Positions 1 through 5,237 of a DNA stretch of 5,237 nt are shown piece after piece (within the stretch, counting starts at the first letter, position 1; each line of letters opens with the position of its first letter). A model generated the notes under the pieces. That model saw only the letters and a list, made by a program, of their open reading frames with translations, ran no database searches and was not told the DNA's origin. A program made the translations under genes and the position numbers. Location: the IMG/VR virus record IMGVR_UViG_2778261591_000027, positions 1 to 5,237 of that record; one strand, given 5' to 3'. This stretch comes from a virus (Duplodnaviria > Heunggongvirae > Uroviricota > Caudoviricetes).

Positions 1-1305
1 CTATGCTTGTTTAATTACATCCGATCCCACAGCGTGGGGCATGGATGGGGCAAACTCACTCAATTTCTGGTTTAAAATGGATACCTGATCCTGATTGTTT
101 TCTGCCATCCACGATCCGTAAACGCGATAAACCATCTGAGCATCAGAGTGTCCCATTTGCTTCGCGATGAAGTTAGGGTTAGCTCCAGCGGTCAAAGACC
201 AACATGCATAAGTGTGCCTGGACTGATATGCTTTGCGGTAGCGAATCCCGGCGCGTCGCATTGCAGTTTCCCATGACTGATTAATCGACCCAACTGCATA
301 ATGGTGCCCGGCAAGGCCATTACGCGTAACGATTTGCGGATTGAAAACAAAAGTGCACGGATGCATTTCAGTTCGACCATACTCACGAAGTTTCACTTCA
401 ACCTGATACTGCTTACCAAGCCGTGTCATTTCAGCCTGATTCTTAAGCACGTCTATTGCAGGTTGAATAAGGTTGATAACACGGTTTGTTCCCGCTTCGG
501 TTTTTGGAAGAGTGAACTCTTTCGTTAATGTGTGGTTTCTTCTGATCGTCATTGTCCCAGCCTTCAGGTCTATATCTTCCCATGCCAGAGAAACCAACTC
601 TCCGTGGCGAACTCCCGTATAAACAGCCAGTGACCACATATTTTTTAATTGCTGATGCTTAAATGCGTTAATCAACCTGACAAATTCATCACGGGTTAAC
701 GGATCAGGTTCCGTTCGTGATCTCTTCAGTTGCGAAATGGCTGCGAACGGATTTTCTTTGATGTATCCGCTGTCGGCTGCGAACTGAAACATCCCCGCCA
801 TGGTGTTCATGTAGTTATTAACAGTTGGCACGGAACGTCCCTTAATGGGTGTTTTTTGCCCACGTTTCAGAACGTGATATCCGGTCAGCAAATCCTTTCG
901 TATGAACAGTAGCTCTTCCTGAGTCACAGCAGATGCAAGTCTGTTGCCTCCGATTCGGGGAACCATATTTCTTACAATGGAGCTGTAACGCCCCATCGCA
1001 TTGGTACTGATTTCCAGCTTTTTCAGATCCAGCCATTTCTCAGCCAGGTCTGCGACGGTAATTTCCTTACTTTCCGCACCAAATTTTCTCAGGTTGGGAG
1101 AGTCCGGAAACTGAGCGGCATAGTCGAAATTACCCGTCTTAATGGAAAAACAAACAGATGCTCGTAGCTCGCCAGCTATTTTCCTGTTTTTTGGTGTATC
1201 CGGCACACCGAGACTTTCCCGCACTCGTGTGCCTTTATACATGAACCATATGCGGAGTGATCCGCCATGGTTCTCAACGCCTGTTGGGTATGCTGTCTTA
1301 GCCAT
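1..1305 (-). CDS. int: Tyrosine-type site-specific integrase, 434 aa, lambda/Rac IntR-like with N-terminal arm-binding domain
   Basis: Complete ORF: ATG at 1303-1305 preceded by AGGAGGG (complement of 1310-1316); TAG stop at 1-3. N-terminus (GSLRIWFMYKGTRVRESLG) resembles arm-type DNA-binding domains of IntR-like integrases, from memory. C-terminus carries tyrosine-recombinase motifs (VRHGEL box I Arg; SRHTYACW; GHSDAQMVYRVY with the likely catalytic Tyr). Confidence 0.9.
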   Translation of the reverse strand: MAKTAYPTGVENHGGSLRIWFMYKGTRVRESLGVPDTPKNRKIAGELRASVCFSIKTGNFDYAAQFPDSPNLRKFGAESKEITVADLAEKWLDLKKLEISTNAMGRYSSIVRNMVPRIGGNRLASAVTQEELLFIRKDLLTGYHVLKRGQKTPIKGRSVPTVNNYMNTMAGMFQFAADSGYIKENPFAAISQLKRSRTEPDPLTRDEFVRLINAFKHQQLKNMWSLAVYTGVRHGELVSLAWEDIDLKAGTMTIRRNHTLTKEFTLPKTEAGTNRVINLIQPAIDVLKNQAEMTRLGKQYQVEVKLREYGRTEMHPCTFVFNPQIVTRNGLAGHHYAVGSINQSWETAMRRAGIRYRKAYQSRHTYACWSLTAGANPNFIAKQMGHSDAQMVYRVYGSWMAENNQDQVSILNQKLSEFAPSMPHAVGSDVIKQA

Positions 1306-1309
1306 TGTT

Positions 1310-1316
1310 CCCTCCT
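1310..1316 (-). promoter_or_regulatory. Shine-Dalgarno sequence (AGGAGGG) for int
   Basis: Plus-strand ccctcct at 1310-1316 is AGGAGGG on the minus strand, 4 nt upstream of the int ATG. Confidence 0.6.
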
Positions 1317-1350
1317 GACGCCCAAGAGCGCATTAAGCATAAACGGTTCT

Positions 1351-1596
1351 TCATCGACGCGCACCAGGCTGTTTTTTTGACATACTCTCAACCCACTGGT
1401 CGATAGCCTTGCGGTTATACATGCATTCGCTGTTTTCTTTTGGAATACCGTCCGGTGCAACATGGAGATATTCACGACCAACAAGCCAGGATTGTTTACG
1501 TGCTCTCTCTATGGTTCCTGGGCGTAAACCTGTAATTTCGATCAGTTTTTGCTCTGTCACCCAGTCGTTGGGCACAATTAAGTTAACTTCGCTCAT
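1351..1596 (-). CDS. xis: Excisionase (putative, small helix-turn-helix-like protein), 81 aa
   Basis: Small ORF immediately upstream of int on the same strand. ATG at 1594-1596 is preceded by GGAG with about 8 nt spacing. The in-frame upstream ATG at 1633-1635 has a poorly spaced ribosome-binding site, so the shorter start is preferred. Residues LIEITGLRPGTIERARK look like a DNA-binding helix-turn-helix, and size and position are typical for prophage Xis. Confidence 0.7.
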   Translation of the reverse strand: MSEVNLIVPNDWVTEQKLIEITGLRPGTIERARKQSWLVGREYLHVAPDGIPKENSECMYNRKAIDQWVESMSKKQPGARR

Positions 1597-1621
1597 TGTT
1601 TTCTCCGGTGCTGGAATGAAA

Positions 1622-1628
1622 GGGGGGG
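1622..1628. repeat. G7/C7 homopolymer tract in the intergenic region upstream of xis
   Basis: Seven consecutive G on the plus strand (C7 on the coding strand), 26 nt upstream of the preferred xis start, within the 73-nt gap between the 114-aa gene stop and xis. Confidence 0.5.
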
Positions 1629-1669
1629 TTAACATGCCTCATTGGGGTTGAGGCTGTGTGATTCCATGG

Positions 1670-2014
1670 TTAGTCCTTGCGTAGTTCGCTAATTCTTCTG
1701 TAAGTCTCTGGTGCTTTGTTCCCGTACGTCTTCATTTCAGACTTCAACAGAGCAACGAGTGAATCCCATTCGTTGAGGATTCCTTTGAATGCCGGAACGC
1801 GCTTTGCAACCTTGTCGAATGAATCCCTGATTTCTGGAATCTGCTCAACAAGTGCAACGCATCGCCGAAAGTCTGCTGCGTCATGGGGAGCGCCGAAGTG
1901 ATGACCATAGATATTCTTTTTCAGGCCACATGCGATTGAGGCAAGAGTTGCGCTACTGATGCCGACATCGCCAGTCGATTGCCATTTCAAAACCTTCATA
2001 GCCAAATCTGACAT
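1670..2014 (-). CDS. Hypothetical protein, 114 aa, function unknown
   Basis: ORF with ATG at 2012-2014 preceded by GGAGA (complement of 2022-2026) at 6-7 nt spacing; TAA stop at 1670-1672. No motif recognised by eye. Confidence 0.65.
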   Translation of the reverse strand: MSDLAMKVLKWQSTGDVGISSATLASIACGLKKNIYGHHFGAPHDAADFRRCVALVEQIPEIRDSFDKVAKRVPAFKGILNEWDSLVALLKSEMKTYGNKAPETYRRISELRKD

Positions 2015-2026
2015 TTCTTGTCTCCA

Positions 2027-2051
2027 TAAAACAAAACCCGCCGTAGCGAGT
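2027..2051 (-). terminator. Possible weak intrinsic terminator or attenuator hairpin between the ASCH gene and the 114-aa gene
   Basis: Minus-strand RNA 5'-CUCGC-UACG-GCGGG-UUUUGUUUU-3': a 5-bp stem (4 Watson-Crick pairs plus one G-U) closed by a UNCG-type tetraloop, followed directly by a U-rich tract. The stem is short and the U tract runs into the downstream ribosome-binding site, so this is tentative. Confidence 0.25.
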
Positions 2052-2086
2052 TCAGATAAAAGAAATCCCCGCGAGTTCGAGGATTG

Positions 2087-2371
2087 TTATTCATTGCCGA
2101 TATTCACCTTTATCGCGAACACCTTTACCGGTTTATCGCCGAAGTGCGGATGTGTGATTGTCTTGATTTCATATCCGTCATACGGAACATCAATTCTACG
2201 GCTGGAATCGTCGCGCTTCGGATATCCCTTTGTGATAATCAGGCGGTCATATTCCCGGAACATGATTCGCTTATTCCAGTAGCCATTACACAGGCGATAC
2301 TCTTCCGTTTTCTCTCCGCGAATCATGGCATCGAAAAATTCACCTTTAACGGCAAGTTGCAGGTTAGCCAC
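2087..2371 (-). CDS. ASCH (ASC-1 homology, PUA-like) domain protein, 94 aa
   Basis: GTG start at 2369-2371 preceded by a perfect AGGAGG (complement of 2378-2383) at 6 nt spacing; stop at 2087-2089. Contains RGEKTEEYR, matching the ASCH signature GxKxxExR, within a roughly 90-aa beta-rich small protein. Confidence 0.75.
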   Translation of the reverse strand: MANLQLAVKGEFFDAMIRGEKTEEYRLCNGYWNKRIMFREYDRLIITKGYPKRDDSSRRIDVPYDGYEIKTITHPHFGDKPVKVFAIKVNIGNE

Positions 2372-3038
2372 GGTTAACCTCCTGCGGCGGTTCTGGTAGA
2401 GGCATCCAGAACAAGGCGTTCCCTAACCACGATAAAGTGCCGTCGCTCAACTCCACGTATTCCCCTTGTACCTGTCCTGCCATATACTCGCCGTGCTTTG
2501 AATAAATTAAAATCCAATCATCTTGAGGGGGCATTCGCTCACTACAGCTTATCCAACCATCCGGAGTTACCGGAGAGTTGCCTGCCAGTCTACGCAAAAC
2601 AGCCTTAACAGCCTCAATACGGTCATCATCGCAATTTTCCAGCGTATCTATGCGGTCGAGCATGATGATGGCGTTATCAATATCAGGATTGCCGGTCCAC
2701 TCATTACCGCGATTGGATTCGGCAGCCTGGTTGCGCATAATCTCAGGCGTAAGCTCTTTGTAAGCATAAGCAAGAGGCTCTGATGCATTATCCGGCACAA
2801 CCGACGCAGGCGCGGCAGCATAAACAGGAATAACGTCCGCTTGCTCTTTATTGCTTTCATCCGTTAAAGCCCAGAATAATTTCCCGGCAGGATGTTTGAA
2901 AATATAAGCAACTGGATCTGCTTCCAGCGATGCCAGTGCAATTTCATAAGCCCGGCGTTCAATATTGTCTCGAACGTCCAGGCTGCTGATACGCTCTTTG
3001 ATTTCTTTAATCAGTTCTTTGTCGGTGAAAGTGGTCAT
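2364..3038 (-). CDS. Phage protein with C-terminal DUF551-like domain, 224 aa, acidic N-terminal region
   Basis: ATG at 3036-3038 preceded by AAGGAGAG (complement of 3043-3050); TAA at 2364-2366 overlaps the ASCH start by 8 nt. The C-terminal segment WISCSERMPPQDDWILIY...LFWMPLPEPP resembles the DUF551 family common in enterobacterial prophage early regions, from memory. Confidence 0.75.
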   Translation of the reverse strand: MTTFTDKELIKEIKERISSLDVRDNIERRAYEIALASLEADPVAYIFKHPAGKLFWALTDESNKEQADVIPVYAAAPASVVPDNASEPLAYAYKELTPEIMRNQAAESNRGNEWTGNPDIDNAIIMLDRIDTLENCDDDRIEAVKAVLRRLAGNSPVTPDGWISCSERMPPQDDWILIYSKHGEYMAGQVQGEYVELSDGTLSWLGNALFWMPLPEPPQEVNRG

Positions 3039-3039
3039 A

Positions 3040-3231
3040 TCACTCTCCTTTAGTGCGAAAGTGGTTTTTCCAGCGGTTTTGTGCTGCGCTTCTGTTTCGC
3101 CAGACACCGTAAAAACGAATAGAGGAACACCCCCTAAAACCCAGATATCTATAGTAAATAACAAGCCGATTTGAGATACGGATACGCTGCCCGGGCTTTG
3201 CTATCAGCATCTTTGCCTTACGATTTTTCAT
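3040..3231 (-). CDS. Small, very basic hypothetical protein, 63 aa (N-terminus MKNRKAK)
   Basis: ATG at 3229-3231 overlaps the TGA of the preceding small ORF (ATGA). Its own TGA at 3040-3042 lies 1 nt before the DUF551 ATG. The 3' end overlaps the DUF551 ribosome-binding site. Composition is extremely Arg/Lys-rich, so coding status is uncertain. Confidence 0.35.
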   Translation of the reverse strand: MKNRKAKMLIAKPGQRIRISNRLVIYYRYLGFRGCSSIRFYGVWRNRSAAQNRWKNHFRTKGE

Positions 3232-3233
3232 CG
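3211..3233. repeat. Copy B of a 23-bp imperfect direct repeat (20 of 23 identical) covering the start of the 63-aa ORF
   Basis: Plus-strand ctttgccttacgatttttcatcg versus ttttgctttacggtttttcatcg at 3384-3406. On the coding strand both read ATGAAAAAYCGTAARGCAAAR. Confidence 0.7.
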
Positions 3234-3404
3234 CACTGCGTACCCCTTCTCTCGTCTGTTCCGCGACGCGGTGGGTTTATAGTTAAATGCGAATACCACC
3301 CTACCATACATGCCGATCACCGCCCGTTTGTGATTGCTGATTGGTAGCTTCTCGTACCCCGTCGAACGCGATAAAAGAAGTAATTTTGCTTTACGGTTTT
3401 TCAT
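3228..3404 (-). CDS. Small basic hypothetical protein, 58 aa (N-terminus MKNRKAK)
   Basis: ATG at 3402-3404 preceded by GGGAGA (complement of 3413-3418) at 8 nt spacing. The start lies inside the last codons of the upstream 292-aa gene (14-nt overlap); TGA at 3228-3230. Confidence 0.4.
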   Translation of the reverse strand: MKNRKAKLLLLSRSTGYEKLPISNHKRAVIGMYGRVVFAFNYKPTASRNRREKGYAVR

Positions 3405-3406
3405 CG
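3384..3406. repeat. Copy A of the 23-bp imperfect direct repeat covering the start of the 58-aa ORF
   Basis: See copy B. The two copies are 173 bp apart and flanking sequence is unrelated. Confidence 0.7.
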
Positions 3407-4269
3407 TTTTGTTCTCCCGCGTCTCCTTTGATGCGAATGCCTGCGGCGCGCGGCACATTAACTTCCACGATGCGCACTGTTGGTTTGTACATCTCAATCG
3501 CTGTCAGCCAGTCAGCTCCTGTCATGCGCTTTTCCGCATCGCCATTAGTCCACTGAACCGGTACACCAATAGCCTTCATCGCGATTTCTATTTCCCCGGC
3601 GATGGCGCTTTTTCCGCAACCAGTAAAACCAGAAACAACGACAAGAACTTCACCTTTGGCTGGTTTTATTTCCCGTGCTTCCAGTTCTGCTATGCGCTTT
3701 TCTGATGCTTCAAGTAACGCCTGCTTATCGCGTAGCGCTTCTTCCAGTTCAGCAACATGGCATTCACTATCAATGAGGTTATTCTCTGCGGCTTCAAGCT
3801 TCTCGCGCATATCGTCAACGTACTCGACCAGAGAACCGCCAGCAGGAATTTCGCACTCCTCGACCAGTTGGAAGTAGATATCAGCTGCGGCCCGTGTGTT
3901 GCTATGCCTAGCGTCGCCCATCTCACCTTCACGAAGAGCATCGCGTTCGGCGGTAAGATTGGCTATCTTGCTGTCTTTGCCTTCCAGTTCAACGCGCAGC
4001 TTCCCTACCGTTAGCGCAATATCCTCGTTCTCCTGGTCGCGGGATTTGATGTATTGCTGGTTCCTTTCCCGTTCATCCAGCAGCGCCAGCACGGTTTCTG
4101 GTCCGGTCAGAAATTTGAAGGCGTTGAGCGCATCAATATCCACACCGTAATCTTTAAGTTCCTGTTCACTTAACAAATCATCATCAGCTGGCAACATTAA
4201 CAGGCGTTCCATTGCTGGAATTGCACGTTCCGCCGCCTCACGCAGTGCCTGGTAATTAATTTCGCTCAC
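3391..4269 (-). CDS. Coiled-coil phage protein, 292 aa, possibly ead/Ea22-like, with a C-terminal Walker A-like motif
   Basis: GTG start at 4267-4269 preceded by AAGGAGG (complement of 4276-4282) at 6 nt spacing and overlapping the upstream TGA (GTGA); TAA at 3391-3393. The N-terminal two thirds are heptad-like and E/R/L/A-rich. The motif GFTGCGKS (GxxGxGKS) follows a hydrophobic strand (EVLVVVS) at nt 3607-3630. The Ea22-like assignment is from memory and tentative. Confidence 0.7.
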   Translation of the reverse strand: MSEINYQALREAAERAIPAMERLLMLPADDDLLSEQELKDYGVDIDALNAFKFLTGPETVLALLDERERNQQYIKSRDQENEDIALTVGKLRVELEGKDSKIANLTAERDALREGEMGDARHSNTRAAADIYFQLVEECEIPAGGSLVEYVDDMREKLEAAENNLIDSECHVAELEEALRDKQALLEASEKRIAELEAREIKPAKGEVLVVVSGFTGCGKSAIAGEIEIAMKAIGVPVQWTNGDAEKRMTGADWLTAIEMYKPTVRIVEVNVPRAAGIRIKGDAGEQNDEKP

Positions 4270-4772
4270 TGGTTGCCTCCTTTGCGAAGCTGTTCCGCAC
4301 AATGCAGCAGGGCGTCCGTCGCTTCTTTCACCGTAACGATGTCGCCATCGTCCAGCCCGGCAACCGTCGCGTCCTTAACGAACACCGAGCAAAGGTCATT
4401 AAACGCCTGCGCCCGCACTTCAGCCAGGAAAGCGTCGGTGGCTGGGGTTTCGCTATGGTGTAGGGCATCGTTGATAATCATTGCAGCAACACCAGCCTGC
4501 CCTGCATCCGTGACCGACACATGCTCAAGAGTTACGGCCATTGCGTGTTTCAGCCCCGCATTCTCAGCGGCCAGCGCAGCGCACTTGGCTTCAATGTTGT
4601 CAATCGTGAGCCCGGCAGAACGACACTCACGCAACGACGTTTCAATTTTTGATTCAAGTTCACCGAACTTACGCACCAGATATTCAGCGTTTGTTTCGTT
4701 AACCTTTAAATCTCGTGGGAAGCATTTACCTTTCAGAAAACCATCCATCTCAATTAGTGACATTTGTTTCAT
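4266..4772 (-). CDS. Hypothetical protein, 168 aa (174 aa if the in-frame GTG at 4788-4790 is used)
   Basis: ATG at 4770-4772 overlaps the TGA of the upstream 54-aa ORF (ATGA) and has GGAG about 9 nt upstream. The stop at 4266-4268 overlaps the GTG start of the 292-aa gene. Alanine-rich with amphipathic segments; no motif recognised. Confidence 0.65.
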
Positions 4773-4933
4773 TTCTTCCCACTCCGCCACATCGCATTCA
4801 GATATTTGTTTTGATTTACTGATGGAAAAGAATTTCTCTTAAGCAATTCCTCTCTCGATGGCATTGGCTTTACGCGTTGGCGAATAATCATTTCTGCCGG
4901 AAGAATGCCGGGATTGTATGCAAGTCCTCTCAT
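4769..4933 (-). CDS. Small hypothetical protein, 54 aa
   Basis: ATG at 4931-4933 preceded by GAGG (complement of 4942-4945), which sits just after the upstream TGA; the stop overlaps the next start. The longer six-frame ORF (to 5083) has no ribosome-binding site and overlaps the 97-aa gene, so it is rejected. Confidence 0.45.
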
Positions 4934-4943
4934 GGTAAATTCC

Positions 4944-5237
4944 TCAGTCATTACTGATAGCGCCATAGCGTGAGCGGTAATTACGCAGGCGCGGGTCAAT
5001 TTCAGGGAAGTGGGTATATGTGGCTTTGCGGAATGGTCGGATTGATGTCTGGTAAATTCGCTCGCGTTCTTCTTTCTCTGCAAGCCATATGCAATGGCGA
5101 AATTCCTTTTCCTCTTTCGTTTCCTGCGGTAGCGACATTATCAGGTCGTAGTTTTTTCTGAATTTATCCAGCACCTCCGATACGGAATTGCCGGAACAGC
5201 GGCGCACGTCATCCGCACCATACAAAGGCGCTGGCAT
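4944..5237 (-). CDS. Hypothetical protein, 97 aa, with the start codon at the window edge
   Basis: ORF begins with ATG at 5235-5237, the last three bases of the window, and ends with TGA at 4944-4946. Upstream signals cannot be assessed, and the true start could lie further upstream outside the window. Confidence 0.55.

Follow-up and report, generated by a model that had tools for sequence, protein, structure and literature searches.

Does the chaining of genes by overlapping stop and start codons mean that their products work together in fixed proportions, or does it reflect the way in which a phage operon is expressed and rearranged? The question is raised by a 5,237-nucleotide (nt) stretch of a virus of the Caudoviricetes (IMG/VR record IMGVR_UViG_2778261591_000027, positions 1 to 5,237; termed the window in the following), at one end of which open reading frames (ORFs) of 97, 54 and 168 codons follow one another. 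The arrangement had been described from the letters alone (the sequence-only reading), and ORF listing as well as direct reading of the DNA bear the description out: the TGA of the first gene is followed by 10 nt and then by the ATG of the second, the stop of the second gene overlaps the start of the third within ATGA at positions 4769-4772, and the stop of the third overlaps the start of a 292-codon ORF within GTGA at 4266-4269. From this coupling a fixed stoichiometry or a common function of the three proteins had been deduced. Our comparisons lead to a different answer. The block is real, already known and ordinary, and we consider it very probable that it represents the known abc2-orf56-(hkaH/eaE-type) segment and that its overlaps are joints of expression and recombination, not the mark of a three-protein complex. 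The segment has been annotated in phages P22, HK620 and HK97 for more than 20 years, and for the product of its first gene a cryo-EM structure on the target is available.

Identity and operon setting of the three genes

The 97-residue protein is Abc2, a characterised anti-RecBCD protein. Its entire length is covered by PF11043 (Anti-RecBCD_p2; residues 1-97/97, E-value (E) 8.9e-64, 212.2 bits against a cut-off of 25), it belongs to PHROG 656 ('abc2 anti-RecBCD', E 1e-54), and it matches P22 Abc2 in the Protein Data Bank (PDB; 8b1t_A) over residues 1-97 with E 4.9e-58 and about 94% identity. The structure of P22 Abc2 with RecBCD was solved by cryo-EM (PDB 8B1T/8B1U). P22 Abc2 attaches to RecC, a subunit of RecBCD, near the Chi-recognition domains and redirects the enzyme rather than blocking it, leaving the helicase activity mostly intact; its residue P68 is proposed to enter the active site of the host protein PpiB, which is thereby recruited (PMC9836394). 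This proline is kept in the window protein, in the context IRPFR, and the high identity to the P22 protein suggests that the Abc2 studied here likewise binds RecC and alters RecBCD activity. Phage DNA ends would then be spared from RecBCD and passed on to the phage recombinase, in this case Erf, the gene for which is located just upstream (in the source genome, a gene of the ERF family lies two genes upstream of abc2 in the early-left operon). The same need, protection of linear phage DNA from the same host target, is served by Gam of lambda and gp5.9 of T7, but these are DNA mimics that block the DNA-binding site, whereas Abc2 binds RecC (PMC9836394). Neither is related to Abc2 in sequence.

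The 54-residue protein is a member of DUF2737, as documented by matches to PF10930 (E 2.6e-31; 107.7 bits, cut-off 25; residues 1-52, with 53 positions in the model) and PHROG 1117 (E 4e-38). It is 100% identical to HkaI of HK620 and 75% identical to Orf56 of P22 and contains the core motif P-x3-REELL-x-RNSF-x5-NKYL. Residues P23, R27, E28, E29, L31, R33, F36, N42, Y44 and L45 are invariant among the temperate and Jerseyvirus members of the family (alignments A2 and A3). This is a real and strongly conserved gene for a small basic protein (6 kDa, isoelectric point 11.0) with little predicted stable fold; the AlphaFold2 (AF2) model consists of three short helices at a predicted local distance difference test score (pLDDT) of 63.6. 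Ratios of nonsynonymous to synonymous substitutions (Nei-Gojobori dN/dS) of about 0.05-0.5 against relatives (0.04-0.5 for DUF2737) point to purifying selection on abc2 and DUF2737 alike, and comparison of DUF2737 with P22 Orf56 gives proportions of synonymous and nonsynonymous differences (pS and pN) of 0.735 and 0.168. An exhaustive profile search among 1.84 billion proteins returned 108 representatives of the family; the few long matches in this search, considered as possible domain fusions, turned out to be upstream-frame extensions or read-through into the next gene. In the window, too, the DUF2737 frame is open upstream through the 3' half of abc2 and forms a 104-codon ORF with a TTG start (4769-5083, minus strand), and several database 'proteins' of 89-207 residues are artefactual extensions or fusions via this upstream-open frame.

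The 168-residue protein has no match in Pfam, NCBIfam or PADLOC and is assigned over residues 1-168 to PHROG 614 (E 2.1e-57). The earlier statement that none of the three proteins carries a recognisable motif does not hold, as the first is Abc2 with its solved structure, the second DUF2737 and the third PHROG 614. Their description as candidates for undescribed accessory proteins has to be divided: all three belong to catalogued families, one of them well characterised, while the families of DUF2737 and of the 168-residue protein have no known function. In agreement with the sequence-only reading, the searches detected no enzymatic domain in the three proteins. A role in host defence or counter-defence, which had been considered for the block, receives no support from PADLOC, in which none of the three proteins finds a match.

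At 100% identity, the window corresponds to a prophage that adjoins fliE in Escherichia coli OkiPb01711 and UTAK-1, and all genes of the window are located on the minus strand. In the surrounding 23 kb of the source genome the RefSeq annotation lists, in this order, a cI-like repressor gene, N, a sieB-like superinfection-exclusion gene, kil, erf, an HK97-gp40-like gene, abc2, the DUF2737 gene, the 168-codon gene (as a 42-codon 'partial' hypothetical), an ead/Ea22-like gene, genes for DUF551 and ASCH proteins, excisionase and integrase genes and fliE. The genes for abc2 ('phage anti-RecBCD protein'), DUF2737 and the ead/Ea22-like protein are annotated at the same coordinates as the ORFs of the window, and the operon order matches that of HK106, HK620 and P22. 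The sequence-only reading had therefore correctly placed the block in the variable accessory stretch of a lambdoid early-left operon. It marks the transition from the recombination module to the variable 'ea' (early accessory) stretch in the early-left operon of a P22/HK620/HK97-type lambdoid prophage; the 'ea' stretch extends between the recombination genes and xis-int, and the block stands at its start. The operon would be N-antiterminated.

The block is laid out as a translationally coupled operon, with stop/start overlaps or a short spacer, Shine-Dalgarno (SD) sequences inside the upstream genes and no internal promoter or terminator found. A consensus scan of the coding strand of 3300-5237 detected neither a sigma-70-like promoter nor a terminator-like site, and no Rfam family matches. 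The hairpin equivalent to tL3, a terminator annotated inside hkaI of HK620, has a predicted energy of -8.8 kcal/mol (z -0.41), is no better than shuffled sequences and was not treated as a terminator. The 54-codon gene is preceded by the SD sequence GAGGA 7 nt 5' of its ATG, the 168-codon gene by GGAG 9 nt 5' of its ATG and the 292-codon gene by AAGGAGG 6 nt 5' of its GTG. Because every gene has a good SD of its own, coupling is not required for translation of the downstream genes.

Constant junctions and exchanged cassettes

A total of 160 related viral loci was fetched with DUF2737 and Abc2 as queries. Both types of junction are strongly conserved: abc2 and DUF2737 are separated by the 10-nt spacer in the large majority of 136 related loci free of redundancy (HK620 and P22 share it unchanged), and after DUF2737 a stop/start overlap of 4 nt, either ATGA or GTGA, is the rule. 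This constancy is one of the arguments for the view that the three ORFs, perhaps together with the 292-residue protein, constitute a single co-functional system of fixed stoichiometry with a role in host takeover, anti-restriction or exclusion. What follows the constant junction is, however, not constant. The gene after DUF2737 encodes 119 distinct proteins of 42-301 residues in 155 loci. In 119 of these 155 loci it starts with an HkaH-type head (MKQM[ST]LIEMDGF...), and in about a quarter it is replaced by an Ead/Ea22-type, methyltransferase-like or DUF551-like gene, with the junction unchanged. The same junction thus leads into 119 different proteins, and coupling does not imply the fixed stoichiometry or co-function that had been deduced from it.

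The 168-residue protein itself is a cassette mosaic, the conserved anchors and junctions of which coincide with the overlaps noted earlier (Table 1). Its modules emerge from an alignment of 26 members (A1) and from a conservation profile calculated per nucleotide position over 163 loci. In the profile, abc2 and DUF2737 (5237-4790) align in 99% of the loci, and further downstream islands of conservation, each shared by 45-65% of the loci, rise at about 4592-4562, 4457-4412 and 4292-4247, with cassettes between them that are present in 7-12% of the loci. The protein is 75% identical to gp33 of HK106 and 58% identical to HkaH of HK620; similarity to P22 EaE (41%) is confined to 98 central and C-terminal residues, the heads being unrelated. 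Partial matches to PHROGs 492, 14548, 368 and 583 are likewise found, and in PHROGs 368 and 14548 one part is matched by the 168-residue protein and a different part by the Ea22-like protein. The second anchor is common to P22 EaE, Ead-headed and other ea-region proteins, and the first cassette occurs joined to an Ead/Ea22-type head in a 221-residue protein of a related locus (L065; Ead head followed by the ...ETPATDAFL cassette). Among the variants of the third gene the endings QLRKGGNQ and ELRKGGNQ dominate. A 21-nt junction pattern, CGNAAAGGAGGNNNNCARTGA, which comprises the ...RKGGxQ-stop segment, the SD sequence and GTGA, is present exactly once in 90 of 167 loci, where it ends either DUF2737 or the third gene; its occurrence at two different gene ends is the outcome expected from recombination between junction copies.

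Comparison with the described relatives reveals the same combination of constant order and variable content. In P22, abc2-orf56-eaE (NC_002371, 25964-26923) have the same order and position, with erf/abc1 ahead of them and the ea genes, xis and int behind. Spacer and start context resemble those of the window just as Abc2 (about 94% identity) and Orf56 (75%) do. EaE shares with the 168-residue protein the KCAAL..EN..LK anchor, the second anchor and the ...QLRKG... C-terminus, but has a different head (MQQVKIYTASPSD...) and overlaps orf56 by 12 nt as opposed to 4 nt here; upstream of abc2, P22 carries abc1 in place of the HK97 gp40-like gene. In HK620 (hkaJ-hkaI-hkaH-hkaG) and HK106 (gp35-gp32; see also gp38/gp37 of HK97) the order of four genes and their junctions are identical to the window. 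HkaJ is an Abc2 protein about 95% identical to that of the window, HkaH shares head and anchors with the 168-residue protein, and HkaG is Ead/Ea22-like. Differences are found in the cassettes inside the third gene and in most of the Ea22-like gene. As DNA, only about 54-65% of the 1.85-kb stretch can be aligned. The neighbouring recombinase differs as well, being Sak4/SSB in HK620 and Erf here.

The 10-nt spacer and the ATGA and GTGA overlaps are parts of conserved junction or anchor sequences of 30-50 nt, each of which comprises an SD sequence and a stop/start signal. Such junctions would allow uninterrupted translation along a polycistronic mRNA and, together with the anchors, would serve as crossover points for homologous recombination, by which cassettes and whole genes are shuffled. 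Recombinases of the Erf/Red-beta type (Rad52-like) join short diverged homologies, with a minimal segment for efficient pairing of about 23-27 bp (PMC3945230). Anchors of 30-50 nt are within the range usable by Rad52-like recombinases, and erf is encoded two genes upstream of abc2. In phage epsilon34, an eaE head is fused in frame to an HNH nuclease (PMC2629481). Given the hypervariability of the third gene, and given that anchors and junctions look like recombination points, the overlaps do not speak for a fixed complex; very probably they reflect polycistronic expression and recombination joints and not the signature of a stoichiometric assembly.

Could cassette exchange have left the third gene without a function? 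The ORF would then be recombination debris, a chimeric pseudogene. In the source genome PGAP marks only its first 42 codons (4647-4772), as a pseudogene that is 'incomplete; missing C-terminus'; the allele combination is rare (among 5,426 complete genomes of E. coli, part of the block occurs in 1,639 and at least 80% of this combination in 28); the structure prediction is of low confidence; and constraint on the cassettes is weak. Pooled pN/pS amounts to 0.6-0.65 in the cassettes, 0.23 in the head, 0.46 in the coiled-coil part and 0.35 in the anchor, the comparisons not being independent and indicating only that all modules lie below 1. The value for the head is at odds with debris, and so is a frame that is open from an SD-preceded start to a stop overlapping the next start. 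The identical protein is found on 409 contigs, more than 7,700 homologues are present in databases, and in-frame cassette exchange keeps ORFs of 92-301 codons open in more than 100 variants. In UTAK-1, the DNA of which is the same, the ORF is annotated as a complete hypothetical protein. The partial call by PGAP is an annotation artefact that goes back to mosaicism: the frame is intact, but of the protein only the conserved head, residues 1-42, matches the PGAP evidence proteins. We therefore regard a pseudogene as highly improbable. The same annotation treats the DUF551 gene (2913-3038), apparently for the same reason, as a 42-codon 'incomplete, missing C-terminus' pseudogene, though it is intact; in the coordinates of the source-genome locus (L003) the two partial calls are found at 9466-9591 and 11200-11325.

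With respect to the nature of the 168-residue protein, a plan of short conserved head, helical coiled-coil-like stalk and variable C-terminal part is shared with Ea22 of lambda and Stx phages (PMC10834534, PMC7093339). Ea22 combines a short N-terminal domain with a coiled coil and a variable C-terminal domain, is tetrameric and very early and acts in a pro-lysogenic manner (PMC10834534, PMC7093339). The head of the 168-residue protein is unrelated to the Ead/Ea22 head, and BLASTP against the adjacent Ea22-like protein gives no significant result. The AF2 model, calculated with 26 homologues, is entirely helical with six helices (pLDDT 59, predicted template modelling score 0.27), and a crude heptad score amounts to 0.88 for residues 29-77. 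The top matches of this model in Foldseek resemble histone folds and are meaningless at the given model confidence. By analogy to Ea22, the protein would be an oligomeric early protein with variable cassettes that set target specificity.

Table 1. Location of the genes, junctions and modules of the block (window coordinates).
Feature	Position	Strand	Remarks
abc2, 97-residue Abc2	4944..5237	-	window ends exactly at abc2 ATG
Spacer between abc2 stop and DUF2737 start, 10 nt	4934..4943	-	SD GAGGA covers abc2 stop codon and first spacer bases
54-residue DUF2737 protein (homologue of P22 Orf56, HK620 HkaI, HK97 gp38)	4769..4933	-	PF10930
168-residue mosaic, acidic, all-alpha protein of the HkaH/EaE kind	4266..4772	-	ATG at 4772, stop at 4266; PHROG 614
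N-terminal head module, residues 1-43	4644..4772	-	near-invariant in A1; about 80% of loci at nucleotide level (4772-4660)
Anchor 1, residues 63-75, end of heptad-rich helix	4548..4586	-	island in about 40-50% of loci, flanks 7-30%
Variable cassette 1, residues 76-107	4452..4547	-	about 10% of related loci
Anchor 2, residues 108-122	4407..4451	-	island in about 55-60% of loci; T109, T112, F115, L116, E118 invariant in A1
Variable cassette 2, residues 123-158	4299..4406	-	about 8% of related loci; many alternative cassettes in A1
Gene-junction element: C-terminus and stop of 168-residue protein (encodes SD AAGGAGG), GTGA, first Ea22-like codons	4247..4298	-	island in about 55-65% of loci
292-residue Ead/Ea22-like protein, GTG start at 4269	3391..4269	-	PF13935, E 7.5e-31 over residues 2-122; RefSeq

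Linkage of abc2 and DUF2737 across phages

In temperate enterobacterial phages, abc2 and DUF2737 form a tight and old gene pair. Both are present in 163 of 165 loci; one of the others contains DUF2737 only and one, an unrelated P22 stretch, neither. In the phage collection, 225 records with Abc2 stand next to 223 with full-length DUF2737. The linkage is kept where the abc2 allele is 61-75% identical, and a species-level scan extends it to distant homologues of 97-102 residues and 29-33% identity (L183, 1895-2191; L185, 2197-2490; L187, 2167-2475). In L185 and L187 the distant abc2 is located directly 5' of DUF2737, in L183 a single 96-residue ORF intervenes, and in two of the three loci, L183 and L185, a protein with an HkaH-type head follows, the head being 43-72% identical. 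Invariant residues of these distant Abc2 proteins (alignment A5) include M1, P4, L5, G7, A8, P68 and, at the C-terminus, RYG. With PF11043, the L187 protein reaches 22.2 bits (cut-off 25) and those of L183 and L185 give no match; because all three homologues stay below the threshold, the model misses part of the Abc2 family. The order abc2-DUF2737-head is old and it is frequent, not obligatory. The expectation of a conserved gene order thus proved right for abc2-DUF2737, which is near-constant, and failed for the third gene and for DUF2737 in other phage groups, which occur independently.

The almost one-to-one occurrence of the two genes, in the loci as in the phage records, raises the possibility that DUF2737/Orf56 is a dedicated partner of Abc2 in a two-gene anti-nuclease module, to which the third gene is unrelated cargo. 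Such a protein could, for example, modulate the RecBCD-Abc2-PpiB complex or inactivate another nuclease of the host. The constant 10-nt spacing, the persistence of the linkage down to about 30% identity of Abc2 and the purifying selection on DUF2737 are all in accordance with a partnership, and the P22 recombination system does possess acknowledged uncharacterised helpers, Abc1 and Arf (PMC9836394). On the other hand, co-expression with RecB, RecC and RecD alone is enough for P22 Abc2 to bind RecBCD, in the presence of no other P22 gene and hence of no DUF2737 protein (PMC9836394). In one related locus (L180 of Escherichia sp. E1V33, 733-1491), an insertion of about 300 nt separates abc2 from DUF2737 and breaks the 10-nt spacing. 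DUF2737 also occurs apart from Abc2. It is found in 702 records of the phage collection, about 480 of which are virulent Guernseyvirinae (Jerseyvirus and Kagunavirus) that encode a 51-residue version with only the C-terminal core in common and do not encode Abc2. Divergent temperate versions occur in lambdoid contexts, either in the nin region behind a ren-like gene or in a RecT-type early-left operon behind a DNA methylase gene. A dedicated partnership is accordingly rather unlikely. We picture DUF2737 as a small early protein that would bind a host factor and may assist the anti-nuclease/recombination module, while Abc2 would have no need of it.

In the Guernseyvirinae the homologue (PHROG 4684) is one of several small genes without assigned function between the lysis cassette and the terminase; Jerseyvirus examples are Salmonella phage SETP7 (L166, 3941-4096) and vB_PsS_LDT325 (L167). 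On a metagenomic lambdoid contig (L168, 2708-3812), DUF2737 and, directly downstream, a gene for a protein with a P22-EaE-type head belong to the nin region of its early-right operon, where the O/P replication genes and a Ren-like gene precede them. The 97-residue protein encoded 5' of DUF2737 on this contig was considered as a hidden Abc2 and rejected, as it is Ren-like.

This contig also bears on the idea of one co-functional system, for here DUF2737 and an EaE-type gene appear to have moved together, and the order of Abc2-like protein, DUF2737 and HkaH-type head is retained in L183 and L185 at about 30% identity of Abc2. Against it stand, in addition to the exchange of the third gene in about a quarter of the loci behind an unchanged junction, the different head of P22 EaE, the presence of DUF2737 in Jerseyviruses and RecT-type prophages that have neither Abc2 nor the head protein, the binding of RecBCD by P22 Abc2 without other P22 genes (PMC9836394) and the lack of PADLOC matches. 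A co-functional assembly of fixed stoichiometry is quite improbable on these grounds.

Several points nevertheless weigh against our interpretation of the block as a known segment held together by expression and recombination joints. The related loci from IMG/VR are the best 80 matches per query and are biased to close relatives of abc2 and DUF2737, and the survival of the order of the trio through deep divergence could reflect functional coupling instead of mere inheritance. The role of the anchors in recombination is suggested by their pattern of conservation. The putative coiled-coil and oligomeric character of the 168-residue protein is drawn from the crude heptad score, the predicted helices and the analogy to Ea22, and the Ead_Ea22 family PF13935 is matched neither by this protein nor by its 25 homologues (A1). 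Profile searches of the PDB yielded only coiled-coil noise for the families of the 168-residue protein and of DUF2737 (for example ZapB and tropomyosin, E > 0.03) and no PDB relative of DUF2737, and Foldseek found nothing with E < 1 for the model of the 168-residue protein in PDB and BFVD. Neither protein has been assigned a function by experiment or by informative homology, and both AlphaFold models are of low confidence. In the published record, neither DUF2737 nor the HkaH-type head sequence is among the genes tested according to the supplements of two accessory-gene screens, where DUF2737 appears solely as a neighbour annotation; Abc2 was used as a control in these screens, and Abc1 triggered an abortive system encoded by P4. 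A paper on co-transfer in lambdoid phages makes no mention of the genes of the block.

Mosaic neighbours and the meaning of the block

Mosaicism extends beyond the block. The C-terminal 90 or so residues of the 292-residue Ea22-like protein (3391-3663, minus strand) contain a Walker-A-like motif, GFTGCGKS, and weakly match APS_kinase (E 0.047), AAA_18, AAA_16 and the 2-phosphoglycerate kinase model PRK04220 (E 0.006); in length the segment falls far short of an entire P-loop NTPase domain, and the cassette occurs in about 4% of the related loci. Two copies of a 22-nt direct repeat, 91% identical and 173 nt apart (3212-3233 and 3385-3406), duplicate the 3' end of the Ea22-like gene (...DEKP-stop and ...DEKS-stop-like) in an otherwise gene-poor stretch (3040-3390); the repeat looks like a gene-end junction left over from an earlier recombination event. 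Further downstream, a 266-codon ORF with a TTG start (2364-3164, minus strand) most likely begins at an ATG at 3038 (MTTFTDKEL..., preceded by AAAGGAG) and then encodes a protein of about 224 residues, which carries a C-terminal DUF551 domain and, with its many partial PHROG matches, appears to be a cassette mosaic as well.

A bolder proposal would see in DUF2737 a third player of the Abc module that targets a host DNA-repair or defence factor, and in the HkaH/EaE-Ea22 proteins a shuffled library of oligomeric effectors in an arms race. We consider this combined idea distinctly unlikely. In this picture DUF2737 is a basic peptide of 6 kDa that has been kept beside abc2 down to about 30% identity of Abc2 and borrowed independently by the virulent Jerseyviruses, and the effectors would consist of a constant head and swappable specificity cassettes. 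Irrespective of this, DUF2737 is a very small, strongly conserved family, the gene of which neighbours a known immune-evasion gene in roughly 30% of the complete E. coli genomes. The mosaicism of the neighbouring genes misleads automatic annotation into calling intact genes pseudogenes, and the third gene of the block illustrates the in-frame exchange of protein cassettes that is open to phages by way of short conserved anchors.

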